Source: a virus
Taxonomy: Duplodnaviria; Heunggongvirae; Uroviricota; Caudoviricetes
Length of the DNA stretch: 9,658 nucleotides
Virus record (IMG/VR): IMGVR_UViG_2695420589_000013
Reading direction: 5' to 3' (one strand)
The notes under the pieces were generated by a model. That model had not been told where the DNA came from. It did no database searches and worked only from the letters and a program-made list of their open reading frames with translations. Both the position numbers and the translations under genes were made by a program. Shown here one piece after another: positions 2,773-9,658 of the stretch (its first letter is position 1; every line of letters starts with the position of its first letter).

Positions 2773-2843
2773 CTGACAATAGCCATATCGAATCGCTCCC
2801 GGCAACTCGTGAGTAAAAAGATTCGGTATCAGAAGAGGTGAGT

Positions 2844-3920
2844 ATGGCTAACGCCTGGCTCAGATTATGGCATGACATGCCAAATGACCCTAAGTGGCGA
2901 ACAATTGCCAGGGTGTCAGGGCAGCCAATTGCAACAGTGATGGCAGTGTATATCCACCTCCTGGTGAGCGCGTCACGAAATGTCACGCGAGGTCACATTG
3001 ATGTCACGACAGAAGATTTGGCAAGTGCGCTCGACGTGACAGAAGAGGTAATTGATTCAATTTTGCAGACGATGCAGGGGCGGGTACNNNNNNNNNNNNN
3101 NNNNNNNNTACTTGATGGTGATTTAATCACTGGATGGGAAAAACGCCAGGTGCTTAAAGAGGACAACGGCAATATTTCGCAAACCGCAAAATCTCCTGCA
3201 GAGCGCAAGAGGGCGCAGCGAGAGAGGGAAAGAAAGCGGGAACAAAATGGCGATTGTCACGGCGCGTCACGAAATGTCACGCACATGTCACGACGAGTCA
3301 CGACAGATACAGATAAAGATACAGATAAAGAAGATCAAAACACTATGGTCCATGGCGTAAAAAACGCCACGAACCAGGCAGGGGATGTTCAGACCGTCAA
3401 TCCTGGTCAGCCAGCAGGCTCGACACCGGAAGCCGATTCAGCGTATGCGCTGAAAGCCGATTCGGGCGCTGTGCAGCAGGTGATGACCGCAAGGCCGGAG
3501 CAATCACTCCAACTGCAGCAGCCTGAAGCCGATTCCGCCATTCAGCGGGAAGCCGATCGGGTAGCCCCGGAAAACACCGGGCAGCCTGTGGGACGAGTGG
3601 ATTATCCGGATGTGTTCGAACAGGTCTGGCGGGAATACCCGTTGCGTGCCGGGGCAAACCCGAAGAAATCCGCATTCAGTGCCTGGAAGGCCAGATTGCG
3701 CGAGGGGGTGCCACCAGAGACCATGCTGGATGGTGTGAGGCGTTACGCGAGATACCTGGCGGCGACCGGGAAAGCGGGAACGGAATTTGTTCAGCGAGNN
3801 NNNNNNNNNNNNNNNNNNNNNNNNNNNNNNNNNNNNNNNNNNNNNNNNNNNNNNNNNNNNNNNNNNNNNNNNNTTTTGGGCCGGACCGGAATTTTGAAAA
3901 CCCCTGGTTGCTCCCGGTAA
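2844..3920 (+). CDS. Phage replication initiator (YdaU/DUF1376-like, lambda O analogue). Boundaries uncertain because the ORF crosses two N-masked runs; the true stop may lie inside 3799-3873
   Basis: AAGAGG ribosome-binding site before ATG 2844. The N-terminus (MANAWLRLWHDMPNDPKWRTIARVSGQPIATVMAVYIHLL) is typical of DUF1376 replication proteins. Contains internal iteron clusters. Immediately precedes the DnaC-like loader gene. Confidence 0.55.
   Translation: MANAWLRLWHDMPNDPKWRTIARVSGQPIATVMAVYIHLLVSASRNVTRGHIDVTTEDLASALDVTEEVIDSILQTMQGRVXXXXXXXXLDGDLITGWEKRQVLKEDNGNISQTAKSPAERKRAQRERERKREQNGDCHGASRNVTHMSRRVTTDTDKDTDKEDQNTMVHGVKNATNQAGDVQTVNPGQPAGSTPEADSAYALKADSGAVQQVMTARPEQSLQLQQPEADSAIQREADRVAPENTGQPVGRVDYPDVFEQVWREYPLRAGANPKKSAFSAWKARLREGVPPETMLDGVRRYARYLAATGKAGTEFVQRXXXXXXXXXXXXXXXXXXXXXXXXXXLGRTGILKTPGCSR
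2968..3040. repeat. Iteron cluster 1 inside the initiator gene: GTCACG/GTCACA at 2972, 2982, 2992 and 3003 (10-11 bp spacing), plus an inverted copy CGTGAC at 3035-3040
   Basis: Counted directly. The 21-mer gcgcgtcacgaaatgtcacgc (2968-2988) is repeated exactly at 3262-3282. Confidence 0.55.
3088..3108. other. Run of 21 N (masked or unresolved sequence) inside the initiator gene
   Basis: Literal n characters. Length is a multiple of 3 and the reading frame is preserved across it. Confidence 0.99.
3256..3330. repeat. Iteron cluster 2 (putative replication origin): five GTCACG copies at 3256, 3266, 3276, 3287 and 3297 (helical-turn spacing), followed by a perfect tandem 12-bp duplication ATACAGATAAAG x2 (3307-3330)
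   Basis: Counted directly. The arrangement of iterons followed by a more AT-rich segment inside the initiator gene parallels lambda ori within gene O. Confidence 0.55.
3799..3873. other. Run of 75 N (masked or unresolved sequence) at the 3' end of the initiator gene
   Basis: Literal n characters. Length is a multiple of 3. The C-terminus of the initiator and any stop codon are hidden here. Confidence 0.99.
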
Positions 3921-4003: not shown

Positions 4004-4750
4004 ATGAAAAACATTGCGGCAGCCGGGGTTCTTGAACGTATTCACAGACTTGCACCACAGGGGGCGGTTCCACCGTACCGGACGGTGGAGGAGTGGCGGG
4101 AATGGCAACTTGCTGAAGGACGAAAACGCAGCGAGGAGATTAACCGCCAGAATCGCCAGTTGCGGGTGGAAAAAATCCTGAATCGTTCGGGCATCCAGCC
4201 TCTGCACAGCAAATGCTCGTTTGCGAATTATCAGGTGCAGAACGACGGGCAAAAATACGCGCTGAGCCAGGCCAAATCCATAGCTGACGAACTGATGACC
4301 GGGTGCACGAATTTTGTGTTCAGCGGTAAAACCGGCACCGGGAAAAATCACCTTGCAGCGGCGATGGGTAACCGGCTGATGGCGAAGGGGCGCAGCGTGA
4401 TTATCGTCACCGAGTCTGATGTCATGAGCGTGTTGCATGACAGCTACGACAACGGCAAATCCGGTGAAAAATTTTTACAGGAGCTTTGCGGGGTTGATTT
4501 GCTGGTCCTGGATGAAATAGGCATTCAGCGGGAGACGAAAAACGAGCAGGTGGTATTGCACCAGATAATTGATCGCCGGACAGCATCACTGTGCAGTGTC
4601 GGGATGTTAACAAACCTGAATCATGCCGCAATGAGCACGCTTCTTGGTGAGAGGATTATGGACCGCATGACCATGAACGGTTGTCGGTGGGTGACGTTTA
4701 ACTGGGATAGCTGGCGTTCAAATGTCAGCTTTCCGGGAGTTGTGAAGTAA
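4004..4750 (+). CDS. DnaC-like helicase loader / replication protein (IstB-like AAA+ ATPase, 248 aa; lambda P analogue, YdaV-like)
   Basis: Walker A motif (FSGKTGTGKNHLAAA) and Walker B motif (DLLVLDEIG). Size and position after the initiator gene match DnaC-type loaders of lambdoid and Rac prophages. Confidence 0.85.
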   Translation: MKNIAAAGVLERIHRLAPQGAVPPYRTVEEWREWQLAEGRKRSEEINRQNRQLRVEKILNRSGIQPLHSKCSFANYQVQNDGQKYALSQAKSIADELMTGCTNFVFSGKTGTGKNHLAAAMGNRLMAKGRSVIIVTESDVMSVLHDSYDNGKSGEKFLQELCGVDLLVLDEIGIQRETKNEQVVLHQIIDRRTASLCSVGMLTNLNHAAMSTLLGERIMDRMTMNGCRWVTFNWDSWRSNVSFPGVVK

Positions 4751-4771
4751 TTTTTGTTGGAGGATGTTTTA

Positions 4772-5497
4772 ATGGAAACTGTATTTGACGCACTGAAAGC
4801 ACTGAAAAGAGCCTCTTCACATGTGGTGGCGTCCCGCCTTGGAATCAGCCGTGAAGATGCGGTCAACGAACTGTGGAAACTGAAGCGCCGTGGTGAAGCG
4901 GATAACAAGGGTTCGATGTGGTGGCTGATTCAGGCTGGTGAAAGTGAACCAGTGTCACCGGTACCGAAAGTGACAGCGCAAATGCTGACTGAGGCGATTG
5001 AACAACATGGCCCACAAACGGCGGATGAGCTGGCACTGATGTTCGGGATTACCTCCCGCCGGGCGAATTCATCGCTGGCCATGGCAATCAGCAAAGGGCG
5101 TCTGATTCGCGTGAATCAGGGCGGTAAATTTCGGTACTGCATACCGGGCGCTGATTTACCGGCAGAGCCGAAAGCCGCATCCATAGCGGAAACGGATGGT
5201 AAAGTCTTTCCTCAGCCAGCAGGTGTTGCGTTACCGGTACAGGAAGCTGCAACACAGGAAGAAATTAAAACAGAAACTGTGGCGGACATTGTGCAGTCGT
5301 TGCCATCGTTCACCGAAACGCAAGCGGATGACCTGGTTTTACCATCGCTGCATATGGCAAACCGCGAACTGCGTCGGGCGAAAAGTCATGTCCAGAAGTG
5401 GGAGCGTGTCTGCGCCGCGTTGCGGGAGCTGAACAAGCACCGGGATATTGTTCGACAGATTGTCGATTCCTCCGGTCGTATTGTGTCGGAAAAGTGA
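4772..5497 (+). CDS. Hypothetical phage protein with two winged-helix-like segments (241 aa from ATG 4772; the ORF track starts at an upstream TTG at 4754)
   Basis: GGAGG at 4759-4763, 8 nt before ATG 4772. Continuous ORF with coding-like composition. No catalytic motif recognised. Confidence 0.65.
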
Positions 5498-5935: not shown

Positions 5936-5992
5936 GTGAAATTAGCTATCAGGCTTCAATTACCGCTGGCATTCGCATCAAAGGAGAGGAGC

Positions 5993-6349
5993 ATGGAAAT
6001 AAAACCAGAAGATGAGTTAAGCAATATTGTTTTATTTCCGGTAAAAGAGGATAACCCTCGTAATCAGGTTAATTTTCTTTATGAGCCATCGGAAAGACCA
6101 TATTGCCATCACGCTTCTGTCCGGGTTGACGAAAAAGAGCGTCAGGTCCGCTGTAAAATTTGCGGTGCAGTTGTGGAGCCATTTGACTGGATGCTCTCTG
6201 TGGCGAAAAGAGAAACCAGACTGGCAGATGATGTAAGGCTCTTGCGCCAGGAGGAGCGGGAAAGGCGAAAAAATATAGAAAAGCTAATCCAGATTGAGCG
6301 TAATGCGAAAGCGCGGATACGCAGGGTGACAAAATATAGCCCCGAATAA
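5993..6349 (+). CDS. Hypothetical protein with a putative zinc-ribbon (C-x16-C-x2-C) and a basic coiled-coil C-terminus (118 aa from ATG 5993)
   Basis: Strong ribosome-binding site AAAGGAGAGG at 5980-5989, just before ATG 5993. Cysteine pattern PYCHH…RCKICG. C-terminus rich in R/E/K (RLLRQEERERRKNIEKLIQIERNAKARIRR). Confidence 0.6.
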   Translation: MEIKPEDELSNIVLFPVKEDNPRNQVNFLYEPSERPYCHHASVRVDEKERQVRCKICGAVVEPFDWMLSVAKRETRLADDVRLLRQEERERRKNIEKLIQIERNAKARIRRVTKYSPE

Positions 6350-6563: not shown

Positions 6564-8396
6564 ATGGCCCGCATGTTTGATACATTAGGATTTTACATTA
6601 TGAATGTGCAACATTTTGATTTTTTTACAGATAATGAGTTTTCTAATCTGGAAAGATATCAAACTTGTAAAGCCATGGCCAAAGGTTATGCGGGCAATTA
6701 CAAAACCGGGCAGTCAAGGTTGATGCATGCCCGCTCATACTGCTTCAGCATCGTAGCTGCATATTGGGATACCCTTGCAAAAAAGCAAAAAAGCAGCATT
6801 AAAATGAGGGCAGTACCGCACACTGTTTACATAGAAGACATTCCATGTGATGCACGCGAGCTCGCTGAACGAACAGGTGAGCTTATTGCTCAATTTCCGG
6901 CGGAGGACGCTGGATATCTGATTGGGTCAATTTATACGGTAATGCTGCCATCCGCTTACCGTTCGGAATTGGGGGCTTACTATACCCCCCCACCTTTGGT
7001 AGCGCGTCTCTTGGACCTGGCTGAAAAGTCTGGTGTTGATTTTTCTCATGCATCGGTTATTGATCCTGCGTGTGGTGGCGGTGCATTTTTGGCACCAGTA
7101 GCCATTCGAATGTTAAAAAAAGACAAGGGGTCTTCCCCTGAATGGATGTTGAGGAGAATCAGTCGTCGTTTAAAGGGGATAGAAATCGATCCATTTGCGG
7201 CTTGGATGAGTTTGGTATTGCTCGAATCTGTACTAATGCCACTATGTGTAAAGGTAAAACGTAGATTGCCTGAAGATACAATTATTGTTGCTGATGCGCT
7301 TCAGCAAGATAAATTTTCTGGTTATGATCTTGTGGTAGGGAATCCGCCTTACGGACGTGTCACTCTCGATATTAAAACGAGAGAAAAATATTCTCGTTCG
7401 TTATTTGGTCATGCAAATCTATATGGATTGTTCACCGACTTAGCTGTTCGCATGGTTAAAGAGAAAACAGGAGTTATTGCATTTCTTACGCCAACTTCTT
7501 TTCTTGGTGGGCAGTATTTCACCGCGCTGCGAACCCTTTTGACCGAAAAAACTACTCCGTATGCCCTTGATTTCGTCACTGACAGGGATGGGGTCTTTGA
7601 CGATGTTCTCCAGGAAACAATGTTGACAGCATTCAAGGCGGGAGAACATAAAGTTCGGGCCCAGGTATCCTCACTTGTCCCTAAGGGGTTGAACAAAGCA
7701 AAAATTGAGAAAATAGGTAATGTTGATATAGAAAAAGGTGGAGCAACGTGGCTTTTGCCACGCGTTAAAGATGATGCCTGTTTTCTTAATGTATTAAAAC
7801 AGATGTCTACGCGTTTAGCTGATCTGGGATACTCAGTCTCTACAGGTCAGTTAGTCTGGAATCGATTTAAGTCGCAGTTGCGTACGACGAAAGGAAAAAA
7901 TAGCTACCCATTAGTCTGGGCGGAATCAATAACTTCAGCTGGTTTTCGTTTTAGTGCAGACAGAAAAAATCATGTTCCCTATATCGATATAACCCCACAA
8001 CAGGGTTTCCTTGTGACAAAATCTGAATGTGTGCTTGTTCAGCGGACAACATCGAAGGAACAGGACAGAAGGATTTTAGCGGCAATTTTACCTCAGGGAT
8101 TTATAGATGAAACTGGTGGCGTAGTAGTTGAAAACCATATTAATATTGTATATTCAAACGGATTGTTCTCTGCGGTTCGCCCTGATGTTATTGATATGCT
8201 ACTTAATTCGCATGTTGTCGATCGGGCGTTCAGGTGTATAAGCGGAAGTGTTGCTGTTTCGGCCTATGAATTGAATTCAATCCCGTTGCCTTCTCTGGAG
8301 CAGGTGATGGAGATTCAATCGTTAATTGATGCTGGCGTCCACAGACGGATTATTGAGAGAACTATCGCTGGTTTCTATGGAGTGATGATTGCATGA
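6564..8396 (+). CDS. N6-adenine DNA methyltransferase, gamma class (Eco57I/TaqI-like catalytic domain plus a C-terminal target-recognition region), 610 aa. Start codon uncertain (alternatives at 6600, 6675, 6723)
   Basis: Motif X GAYYTPPP, motif I (AdoMet binding) VIDPACGGGAFL, and motif IV NPPYG (nt about 7338-7355) occur in the gamma-class order X-I-IV. Long C-terminal half consistent with a target-recognition domain. Stop overlaps the downstream gene (ATGA at 8393-8396). Confidence 0.85.
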   Translation: MARMFDTLGFYIMNVQHFDFFTDNEFSNLERYQTCKAMAKGYAGNYKTGQSRLMHARSYCFSIVAAYWDTLAKKQKSSIKMRAVPHTVYIEDIPCDARELAERTGELIAQFPAEDAGYLIGSIYTVMLPSAYRSELGAYYTPPPLVARLLDLAEKSGVDFSHASVIDPACGGGAFLAPVAIRMLKKDKGSSPEWMLRRISRRLKGIEIDPFAAWMSLVLLESVLMPLCVKVKRRLPEDTIIVADALQQDKFSGYDLVVGNPPYGRVTLDIKTREKYSRSLFGHANLYGLFTDLAVRMVKEKTGVIAFLTPTSFLGGQYFTALRTLLTEKTTPYALDFVTDRDGVFDDVLQETMLTAFKAGEHKVRAQVSSLVPKGLNKAKIEKIGNVDIEKGGATWLLPRVKDDACFLNVLKQMSTRLADLGYSVSTGQLVWNRFKSQLRTTKGKNSYPLVWAESITSAGFRFSADRKNHVPYIDITPQQGFLVTKSECVLVQRTTSKEQDRRILAAILPQGFIDETGGVVVENHINIVYSNGLFSAVRPDVIDMLLNSHVVDRAFRCISGSVAVSAYELNSIPLPSLEQVMEIQSLIDAGVHRRIIERTIAGFYGVMIA

Positions 8397-9475
8397 ATCT
8401 GCCTGTTGTTCCCCCATTGAATGTTATCCGGGAAAGATTACAATTAATTTTCCCTGAAGGGACTGAGAATCGTGGATATTTAATTCGGGAAATAGCTGCA
8501 AAAACAATTTTTGTCATGTTTTATGCTGGTGCGGTTGAGGGGCTGGGGCGATGGATAAGGCCCAGCCAGGTTGTAAGTATGGGAGATTCGCAGGCTGCTC
8601 TTACTGATGATGCGTCCAGAGAAAGCTGGGTAAAGATGACTTTCTCTAAACAAAAGATAAGGCCTGCTGATGCATGGTATGCGGAAAATACGCGTGAGCC
8701 AATACGTGATGAAACTATAAAAAATGGCCTAATACCTTGCAATGCAATTGTTGAGCGTAAAGGTATACCCACCACATCCTCTCGTCCTCGTTACAGTTTG
8801 AATCGCTCTTTTGCAGCACTCTTTGATGCCGGGCTTGAAGGAGATTCGCTGCTGAGTGCAATAAGTTCCTGGCAAGAAAATCATTTGAACAAAGCCGCTC
8901 TTGCTAGGTTGCGTTTATTGAAATCAGGGGCAGTGATTGCTGCTGATGCCGTAGTCGTCACTTTCCCAAATGGAGAGAAGAGAACTTTAGCTCCGGGCCC
9001 GTCAAGTACAATAGCTAAGGCCGTCATCGAAGTTTTTGCTCCTAATTTTCTTAAGAATCCAACTGTGCTCTGGTTGTCTGAATCCGGGAATAAAGTTGTT
9101 GCTCAGGATGATGTATTGGCAAAAGCATTGGGGCTGAATATTGATGCCTCAAAAGCACTTCCAGATATTATTTTGATTGATTTGGGAGAGGACCGAACGG
9201 GTTCGGACATGCTTGTAGTTTTCACTGAAGTAGTTGCGACAGATGGGCCTATAAACAGGGAACGAAAAGTTACTCTCACTCATTTGGCTATTGACGCTGG
9301 GTTCAGCGAGAAAAATCTTGCATTCCTTACGGCATTTATGGACAGAAGTGCTCTGCCTTTTAAAAAGGCAATACCAGAATTGGCGTGGGGATCTTATGCA
9401 TGGTTTGCTTCTGAACCGGAGCACTTAATTGATCTTCGGGATGGTTATCCGGTAAAGATCAGCCAGAGAAAATGA
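8393..9475 (+). CDS. Methyltransferase-coupled partner protein, 360 aa. Putative restriction endonuclease, possibly BsuBI/PstI-like. Function not provable from sequence alone
   Basis: Translationally coupled to the methyltransferase by a 4-bp overlap. Same low-GC composition. Size is typical of Type II restriction subunits. No canonical PD-(D/E)xK, HNH or GIY-YIG motif identified by eye. The BsuBI/PstI family guess is from recalled gene-neighbourhood patterns only. Confidence 0.55.
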   Translation: MNLPVVPPLNVIRERLQLIFPEGTENRGYLIREIAAKTIFVMFYAGAVEGLGRWIRPSQVVSMGDSQAALTDDASRESWVKMTFSKQKIRPADAWYAENTREPIRDETIKNGLIPCNAIVERKGIPTTSSRPRYSLNRSFAALFDAGLEGDSLLSAISSWQENHLNKAALARLRLLKSGAVIAADAVVVTFPNGEKRTLAPGPSSTIAKAVIEVFAPNFLKNPTVLWLSESGNKVVAQDDVLAKALGLNIDASKALPDIILIDLGEDRTGSDMLVVFTEVVATDGPINRERKVTLTHLAIDAGFSEKNLAFLTAFMDRSALPFKKAIPELAWGSYAWFASEPEHLIDLRDGYPVKISQRK

Positions 9476-9627
9476 CCAAAGTTTGATATCCGCCACGCCC
9501 TGAAGGATGGGGGTTTTACGGTGCACTGGATAAAAAATCGGTTTCATAGATTTGCCCACCGTGGTATACGCCTGCGATAAAAACTTTATTGTCATCAACG
9601 GCAAAAGCAATAATTGTTCTGTGGCGG

Positions 9628-9658
9628 GGTGATGCTGCCAACTTACTGATTTAGTGTA
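9628..9658 (+). mobile_element. Partial IS1 terminus: first 31 bp of an IS1 copy, starting with its terminal inverted repeat
   Basis: GGTGATGCTGCCAACTTACTGATTTAGTGTA matches the IS1 left end from memory. Same orientation as the IS1 fragment at 1-30. Confidence 0.75.

Follow-up and report, generated by a model that had tools for sequence, protein, structure and literature searches.

A putative two-gene BsuBI/PstI-family Type II restriction-modification system of long form at the edge of a lambda-like prophage remnant

We describe here a pair of adjacent genes near the right-hand end of a 9,658-nucleotide stretch of viral DNA, which we refer to as the window. Both of the open reading frames named in an earlier note on this DNA exist, and both lie on the plus strand. 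The first (M, positions 6564–8396) codes for a 610-residue gamma-class N6-adenine DNA methyltransferase belonging to the M.PstI/M.BsuBI-like group as its long form, and the second (R, positions 8393–9475) codes for a 360-residue BsuBI/PstI-family Type II restriction endonuclease that we place in a corresponding long-form subfamily. Direct reading of the sequence bears out the ATGA overlap at 8393–8396 on the plus strand, which holds the start codon of R (ATG) and the stop codon of M (TGA), and the pair is situated, as had been reported, downstream of the phage replication module, with its replisome organiser (2838–3920) and DnaC/IstB-like ATPase (4004–4750) genes. The pair had also been called compositionally foreign, and its GC content is indeed lower than that of the rest of the window (43.6% versus 49.2%), although the effect is only moderate; GC3 is 36–37% in the pair as against 50–62% in three replication-module genes (O-like, DnaC-like, and DUF1627), and 44% in orf137, which adjoins the pair. 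Upstream of M we found neither a sigma-70-like site on the plus strand nor, in a search for a controller gene, any plus-strand open reading frame of 50 or more codons, the short reading frames there being 22–30 residues long.

The right-hand flank departs from the earlier description, in which IS1 was said to follow the pair directly. The R stop codon and the IS1 repeat are separated by 152 bp, and within these lies what IS1 has left of a RelE/ParE-family toxin gene, a 3' stump of about 37 codons (9516–9627, minus strand). The IS1 terminal inverted repeat comes next (9628–9658, plus strand) and the window ends inside the element; the stump and the repeat are neighbors that lie outside the restriction-modification system. 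At the corresponding position, E. coli FDAARGOS_943 (NZ_CP065615) and a second related locus (L012) are annotated with the toxin gene intact and a ParD antitoxin gene after it, and the similarity of the window to these two loci ends at 9627. Among 5,426 E. coli genomes, 4,308 hold matches to the repeat, at 56,622 places in all, an annotated copy of it adjoins an IS1B transposase, and at two other related loci (L009 and L013) an IS1 transposase comes next. In S. sonnei-type genomes the prophage is absent beyond IS1. We also note that the prophage carrying the locus is decaying and has suffered much IS1 damage.

The assignment of M as a gamma-class enzyme, made previously on the motifs YYTP, DPACGGGAFL, and NPPYG, holds in full, and the catalytic residues are kept on alignment. 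The conserved YYTPPP motif upstream of the SAM-binding site (residues 139–144; 6978–6995, plus strand) aligns with 'ETPPEV' of M.TaqI, and its Y140, T141, P142, and P143 are invariant in long-form M proteins. Motif I, the SAM-binding site DPACGGGAFL (residues 167–176; 7062–7091, plus strand), aligns with 'EPACAHGPFL' of M.TaqI, and D167, G171, and G173 are invariant in both long and short forms. The same is true of N260, P261, P262, and Y263 in the catalytic motif IV, NPPYG (residues 260–264; 7341–7355, plus strand), which aligns with 'GNPPYG' of M.TaqI. The order of the motifs, with I before IV, and the C-terminal location of the target-recognition region are those of the gamma class, and the Pfam profiles Eco57I (PF07669, 51.4 bits, cut-off 25.3) and N6_Mtase (PF02384, 37.6 bits, cut-off 20.4) both match above their cut-offs. 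M is also collinear, at 21–23% identity, with the methyltransferases that accompany short PstI-like endonucleases, and the M protein of a 99.9%-identical E. coli locus is WP_000113425.1.

The 360-residue partner had been described as having no recognizable nuclease motif, but it contains the PD...E core of its family, with P257-D258 at 9161–9166 and E279 at 9227–9229 (plus strand). The BsuBI_PstI_RE profile that the earlier note had proposed for the search proves to be the right one, and the profile search returned above-cut-off matches for both proteins. In R these cover an N-terminal helix-turn-helix DNA-binding domain (residues 10–172; 8420–8908, plus strand; PF17728, E = 1.2e-30, 106.6 bits, cut-off 27, profile positions 2–136 of 140) and a C-terminal catalytic domain (residues 188–349; 8954–9439, plus strand; PF06616, E = 9.3e-45, 152.2 bits, cut-off 27, profile positions 2–152 of 154). 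Our alignment (A2) of R with six short-form PstI-like members and two long-form homologues has 24 columns that are invariant between the long-form members and the six short ones, and R keeps every one of them; the residues kept include R101, E102, R105, K234, P257, D258, E279, V281, G285, P286, R291, W332, W337, P342, and H344, the first three of which lie in the 'NTREPIR' segment of the helix-turn-helix domain. The structure prediction that had been suggested as a check finds in R the fold of SdaI (PDB 2ixs), a winged helix plus a restriction-endonuclease core, and SdaI, which R matches by sequence with E = 1.8e-16, is the sole solved family structure returned by sequence and fold searches. 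The AF2 model of R has high confidence in the helix-turn-helix domain but only moderate confidence in the catalytic domain (pLDDT mostly 45–80).

The active site of R is non-canonical in one respect. A canonical PD-(D/E)XK lysine is not assignable, the E-x-K position being occupied by an invariant valine, and the SdaI-type variant (PD...E-x-x-K) is not found in R either. SdaI has E-A-V-K, with its lysine (reportedly K251) three residues past the catalytic glutamate, whereas R, which is about 40 residues longer, has E-V-V-A, so that A282 falls in the SdaI lysine column; this alanine is invariant in 45 long-form homologues. The six short-form members have threonine or serine in that column, and the SdaI-type lysine is therefore specific to SdaI rather than family-defining. 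The PD...EVVA(T/S)DG motif is invariant across the 45 long-form homologues, which come from many genera, and we take this invariance to reflect purifying selection on the active site.

The two genes also behave as a pair. PADLOC calls them a Type II MTase plus a Type II REase, and its profiles match M over residues 7–608 (MTase_II PDLC03338, E = 1.8e-300) and R over its full length (E = 2.8e-128), values that exclude chance open reading frames. On at least 1000 contigs, the greater part of them from Shigella sonnei, RefSeq holds the exact M and R proteins under the BsuBI/PstI family name, as a methyltransferase and a 'BsuBI/PstI family type II restriction endonuclease'. As in orthodox Type II systems, M is encoded by its own gene beside that of R, and the two have been conserved together; M and R being separate open reading frames, the organization is not that of the fused Type IIG/IIS enzymes (Eco57I, MmeI type), the MmeI_Mtase profile scores M at 19.6 bits, under its cut-off of 27, and matches to the PADLOC IIG profiles are confined to the methyltransferase core (E about 1e-9 to 1e-12). 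The pair is an ordinary one of the known PstI/BsuBI-family kind, already so labelled in public databases, and is not an undescribed defence system. With a probability of roughly 0.85, we favor the reading that the locus is a two-gene BsuBI/PstI-family Type II restriction-modification system that a lambda-like prophage remnant carries as accessory cargo at its right-hand edge; this is the Type II branch of the alternatives offered in the earlier note, and it is supported by the full-length membership of R in a known endonuclease family.

A plausible scheme for how such a system would act in vivo can be drawn from these features. Using SAM, M would methylate an adenine at N6 within a short target site on each strand of the host DNA, and R would bind the same site when unmethylated through its N-terminal helix-turn-helix domain and cut it with the magnesium-dependent, PD-(D/E)XK-type catalytic domain at its C terminus, such that unmarked incoming phage or plasmid DNA would be destroyed. 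The system as proposed has no separate controller protein; with the M gene first and its stop codon overlapping the R start, the two would be translationally coupled, and every message that gave rise to R would give M as well. The pair probably helps to keep the prophage remnant in the chromosome, since its loss would leave behind a long-lived nuclease while new DNA went unmarked.

The slightly unusual aspect of the pair is that it represents a divergent long-form subfamily of the BsuBI/PstI family. Both genes belong to the same protein families as PstI/BsuBI and the short-form plasmid pairs, of which we sampled six (C. perfringens, Pandoraea, E. coli pG5A4Y413, L. sakei, Acinetobacter, and Vibrio). 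Five of these six are co-directional with M before R, three of the five with a 4-nt overlap, as in the window. However, the short forms have R proteins of about 310–325 residues and M proteins of 475–510, and the window proteins are larger, the N-terminal DNA-binding domain of R containing an insertion of roughly 28 residues and M being extended at its N terminus by about 110. Identity between the window and the six short-form pairs is 19–24% for R and 21–23% for M, with 24 columns of the R alignment and 42 of the M alignment invariant; over all sampled short forms, including the phage-borne EcoGIII type, the ranges are 19–29% and 21–26%. The long-form module, M then R with a 4-nt overlap, is also present on Burkholderia, Xanthomonas, and Rhodopseudomonas plasmids, and these plasmid pairs, which span three proteobacterial classes, are 67%, 53%, and 55% identical in R and 59%, 42%, and 45% in M, a pattern of parallel divergence. 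The long form is absent from all 50,697 phage-collection records searched, and we found no biochemically characterized long-form member (R of about 360 and M of about 600 residues).

The closest parallel in setting is EcoGIII. This PstI-like pair is carried by the Stx2a lambdoid prophage of E. coli O104:H4, O145:H28, O111, and others; CTGCAG is the sequence that it both methylates and cuts, and it confers protection from other lambda-like phages (PMC3893438, PMC6602927). Like EcoGIII, the window pair is a two-gene BsuBI/PstI Type II system of the same Pfam families, carried as lambdoid prophage cargo in the E. coli/Shigella lineage. The prophage is nonetheless a different one, non-Stx and truncated by IS1, and the pair is of the long form (610 plus 360 residues), unlike EcoGIII; R is 26–28% identical to its EcoGIII counterpart over residues 78–348, and M about 26% over residues 248–584. 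Close kinship with EcoGIII was rejected on this low identity of 26–28% and on the absence of the long form from the phage records.

PstI and BsuBI cleave CTGCAG, and we consider the odds roughly even that the pair recognizes either CTGCAG or a related sequence built on a TGCA core. Searches of the literature on S. sonnei, Xanthomonas, and Pseudomonas methylomes, EcoGIII, and XphI/XorKII did not yield the recognition sequence, and no activity reports for the window protein pair were found in the literature searched; the motifs in a Xanthomonas methylome paper are not linked to the long-form gene, and a CTGCAG system of P. syringae is of the short form, being only 2,423 bp long. CTGCAG occurs twice in the window against 3.4 expected and five times in a related 21-kb prophage against 7.3 expected; sequences of this length are too short for such counts, or for site-avoidance statistics on palindromic hexamers generally, to be informative. 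The strongest competing model, to which we assign a little less than an even chance, accepts the pair as a genuine restriction-modification system but has the long form depart from PstI in specificity or cleavage mode, recognizing for example another palindrome or a longer, SdaI-like site. The low identity to the CTGCAG-type short forms (R 19–29%, M 21–26%) is consistent with this, as are the insertion in the DNA-binding domain of R and the extra N-terminal region of M, and SdaI, which recognizes the 8-bp site CCTGCAGG, shows that the family is not confined to CTGCAG. On the other hand, the DNA-binding 'NTRExxR' segment (R101/E102/R105) is invariant across long and short forms, and a long-form pair is carried on plasmids of Xanthomonas phaseoli, the species from which the PstI isoschizomer XphI comes, although XphI is not known to be linked to the long-form gene. 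We advance tentatively the more specific proposal that the long form recognizes a sequence other than CTGCAG and has a rearranged active site, with the lysine supplied by, for example, K234 or R291/K292; if so, the S. sonnei enzyme would have a new restriction specificity, in a protein that is identical in every assembly retrieved.

A less probable model, and in our view an unlikely one, is that M is active and R is catalytically dead or unexpressed, leaving an orphan prophage methyltransferase with an epigenetic role and no part in defence. The unassignable catalytic lysine, with A282 in the SdaI lysine position, would fit such a model, as would the failure to find a promoter upstream of M and the location of the locus in a decaying prophage full of IS1 damage. 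However, R keeps all of the family-invariant residues, its PD...EVVA(T/S)DG motif is invariant in the 45 long-form homologues, and the sampled short PstI-like members likewise do without an SdaI-type lysine; the idea of a nuclease dead for want of that lysine was dropped on these grounds. The R reading frame, too, argues against this model, being intact and coding for exactly the same protein in all six assemblies retrieved; the public collection lists this exact protein in 4,192 blocks, most of them from S. sonnei. A near-identical pair is present in five of five Shigella sonnei-type chromosomes examined. Seven genomes differ by 0–3 substitutions over 3.3 kb of the locus, plus one 1-nt indel, which frameshifts M beside an intact R in a single assembly (L011). 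A broken M next to a functional nuclease would be tolerable only if R were harmless, but this assembly carries four homopolymer indels in 17 kb (a sister assembly has six), and the frameshift is therefore probably a sequencing or assembly error. A C7 homopolymer does lie within the YYTPPP codons of M (6985–6991); in view of the homopolymer errors in that assembly, phase variation at the C7 tract was rejected as an account of the frameshift, together with a harmless R.

The remaining alternative, in which the methyltransferase and a non-canonical effector together form a novel defence cassette that does not work by restriction, is very improbable and in this form is refuted, since its basis is a weak, sub-threshold similarity to the BREX PglX and MADS Mad2 profiles that is confined to the methyltransferase core (NCBIfam 16–37 bits versus cut-offs of 400–900), whereas PglZ, BrxC, BrxL, and other Mad genes are absent from the window and from the flanks of related loci, the pair itself belongs to neither BREX nor MADS, and R is a full-length, RefSeq-annotated BsuBI/PstI endonuclease by sequence, conserved residues, and fold.

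With the locus read as a BsuBI/PstI-family Type II system, the part of the window that had seemed most likely to hold a novel defence system becomes a textbook Type II restriction-modification pair, one that annotation pipelines have named correctly. If active, the pair would stand in the way of S. sonnei phage therapy candidates and would impede plasmid uptake and genetic manipulation of this pathogen, and it would place a species-wide m6A mark on S. sonnei DNA. To learn its recognition sequence would extend REBASE-type knowledge in a modest but useful way.

[quoted passage not shown] The two open reading frames lie precisely where they had been placed, at 6564..8396 (+) for the 610-residue M and 8393..9475 (+) for R, and positions 8393-8396 read ATGA, the R start codon overlapping the M stop codon. 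In the profile search that had been proposed, R matches both domains that define the family, the N-terminal HTH domain (PF17728, E = 1.2e-30, 106.6 bits) and the catalytic domain (PF06616, E = 9.3e-45, 152.2 bits), for each of which the Pfam cut-off is 27 bits. A PADLOC Type II REase profile covers R end to end (E = 2.8e-128), and SdaI (2ixs), the sole solved family structure found by our searches, matches it at E = 1.8e-16. Although no nuclease motif had been recognised in R by eye, the PD...E core of the family is present (P257-D258 and E279).

R departs from SdaI in having E-V-V-A at the position of the SdaI E-A-V-K, the lysine of which is the catalytic K251 of the SdaI structure. We aligned the window R with two homologues from long-form pairs (R of about 360 and M of about 600 residues) and six distant members from short-form, smaller PstI-like pairs, found on plasmids of Clostridium, Pandoraea, E. 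coli, Latilactobacillus, Vibrio and Acinetobacter. Because all six short forms have Thr or Ser in place of the lysine, the lysine is a peculiarity of SdaI rather than a family feature. The window R keeps all 24 columns that are invariant across both forms, including R101, E102 and R105 in the DNA-binding domain together with K234, P257-D258, E279, V281, G285-P286 and R291. Across many genera, 45 homologues of the long form share the invariant motif PD...EVVA(T/S)DG, a pattern that points to purifying selection at the active site.

The assignment of M to the gamma-class N6-adenine methyltransferases stands, with motif I preceding motif IV and the variable region at the C-terminus. YYTPPP occupies M residues 139-144, and motif I (DPACGGGAFL, residues 167-176) and motif IV (NPPYG, residues 260-264) align with M.TaqI. 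M exceeds the curated Pfam cut-offs for both Eco57I and N6_Mtase, and the PADLOC Type II MTase profile matches residues 7-608 (E = 1.8e-300). It is collinear with the methyltransferase partners of short PstI-like endonucleases, the C-terminal target-recognition region included, at 21-23% identity, and 42 columns are invariant, those of motifs I and IV among them; only the long form has the additional N-terminal region, about 110 residues in length. BREX PglX, MADS Mad2 and Type IIG were rejected as identities for M, since the matches are weak, lie far under the cut-offs and reflect the shared methyltransferase core only, and no other genes of BREX, MADS or Type IIG systems were found in the window or related loci. 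The stretch that encodes the conserved TPPP in M contains a C7 homopolymer (6985-6991). One S. sonnei-type chromosome (L011) has C6 there, which splits M into 133- and 428-residue pieces beside an intact R; this frameshift is probably a sequencing error, because the same assembly has several other homopolymer indels, although real slippage is possible.

The long-form pair is a conserved mobile module, in which co-directional genes with a 4-nt overlap encode M of about 595-609 residues and R of about 356-364 residues. It is also present on plasmids of Burkholderia pyrrocinia, Rhodopseudomonas palustris and Xanthomonas phaseoli, to which the window proteins are 67, 53 and 55% (R) and 59, 42 and 45% (M) identical respectively, in parallel divergence. 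A large protein collection holds 3,724 R homologues at E ≤ 1e-5, the nearest being in Kluyvera, Citrobacter, Serratia, Klebsiella and Enterobacter, with a clear identity gap between the long form (at least 50% over the full length) and the short PstI-like enzymes (19-29%, over residues ~96-348 only). On the Xanthomonas phaseoli plasmid pA, a small ribbon-helix-helix gene (L017:1523-1717) overlaps the methyltransferase gene start and may encode a controller-like regulator. The window has no equivalent gene, and neither a controller-protein gene nor a clear sigma-70 promoter was found upstream of M.

What is already established for Type II systems and for the BsuBI/PstI family gives the most likely mechanism. 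M would mark an adenine of the recognition site on both strands, and R would recognise that site with its winged-helix domain, cutting it when unmarked; the M-first order and the overlapping stop and start codons would make R production depend on a transcript that encodes M as well. The closest described analogue, EcoGIII of Stx2a prophages, methylates and cleaves CTGCAG and defends its lysogens against other lambda-like phages (PMC3893438, PMC6602927), yet it is only 26-28% identical. The conserved 'NTRExxR' segment that R has in common with CTGCAG-type enzymes suggests that the recognition sequence is CTGCAG or a relative. Xanthomonas phaseoli, which carries a long-form pair, is the source of the PstI isoschizomer XphI and so points the same way. 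A different site is compatible with the low identity and with the additional segments of M and R, and neither literature searches nor site-avoidance statistics gave an assignment.

The pair lies downstream of a phage replication module, as had been noted, and the module is lambdoid, with a replisome organiser (2838-3920), a DnaC/IstB-like ATPase (4004-4750) and DUF1627, DUF977 and zinc-ribbon proteins. The pair is compositionally foreign, as described, though only to a moderate degree: its GC content is 43.6%, compared with 49.2% in the remaining window, and GC3 is 36-37% against 50-62% in three replication-module genes, with 44% in the adjacent orf137. Masked runs of N at 3088-3108 and 3799-3873, both within the replisome-organiser gene, appear as X in ORF translations and affect the composition values of that stretch. 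The ORF directly upstream of M (5936-6349) codes for a small protein bearing a CxxC...CxxC zinc-ribbon signature, with a weak, sub-threshold match to Zn_Ribbon_TF (21.1 bits, cut-off 29), and RefSeq has a shorter, 118-residue hypothetical protein at this position. It is conserved beside the pair in all E. coli and Shigella loci and is probably phage backbone rather than a regulator of the pair, because it is missing beside the plasmid-borne long-form pairs.

IS1 does not follow the pair directly, as had been thought; its terminal repeat forms only the final 31 bases (9628-9658), and the 3' stump of a RelE/ParE-family toxin gene (9516-9627, -), cut by IS1, intervenes after the R stop codon. The repeat has 56,622 matches in 4,308 E. 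coli genomes, and annotated copies adjoin IS1 transposase. In two E. coli copies (L001 and L012) the pair lies within a complete lambdoid prophage, with the replication genes on one side and, on the other, a ParDE toxin-antitoxin pair and then DUF968, RusA, Q, lysis and terminase genes; accessory cargo is usually found at this place. In all five S. sonnei-type chromosomes examined (L009-L011, L013 and L014), and therefore in the window, the parE-type gene is cut by IS1. Host genes follow IS1 directly (mannitol-dehydrogenase family, YdfZ family, GntR-family regulator, short-chain dehydrogenase and M3 peptidase), so that the cognate ParD antitoxin gene is missing together with all of the late region from DUF968 to terminase, both of which are intact in E. 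coli FDAARGOS_943 and L012. The pair thus survives as the last cargo, on the right-hand edge of what remains of the prophage. The DUF1627 gene (4754-5497, E = 3.9e-93), between the DnaC-like and DUF977 genes, is shared with the S. sonnei-type loci and absent from the FDAARGOS_943 and L012 prophages, whose immunity region also differs (LexA/S24-type repressor and P22 Cro), which shows lambdoid mosaicism upstream of a near-identical cassette.

A second toxin-antitoxin pair in the remnant is intact, with a ParE-family toxin (971-1261, -; PF05016, E = 1.8e-17) and a PaaA2-type antitoxin (1261-1455, -; PF21217, E = 3e-23) directly beside a CI-like repressor gene (1475-2005). The remnant thus has two kinds of potential addiction module, toxin-antitoxin and restriction-modification, and general restriction-modification biology suggests that post-segregational killing by the latter would stabilise it.

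The pair is already known, and the undescribed defence system hoped for in the earlier note gives way to an endonuclease family that public annotation names correctly ('BsuBI/PstI family type II restriction endonuclease', beside 'N-6 DNA methylase / HsdM family methyltransferase'). Identical M and R sequences occur on at least 1000 contigs of a public collection, Shigella sonnei predominating. The locus is present in only two of 5,426 complete E. coli genomes; that of FDAARGOS_943 is 99.9% identical and annotated alike (WP_000113425.1, WP_001053102.1). Across seven genomes the 3.3-kb locus has 0-3 substitutions, L011 having one additional 1-nt indel. The system retains some interest for the uncharacterised specificity of its long-form subfamily and for the recurrence of that subfamily in Shigella sonnei genomes.
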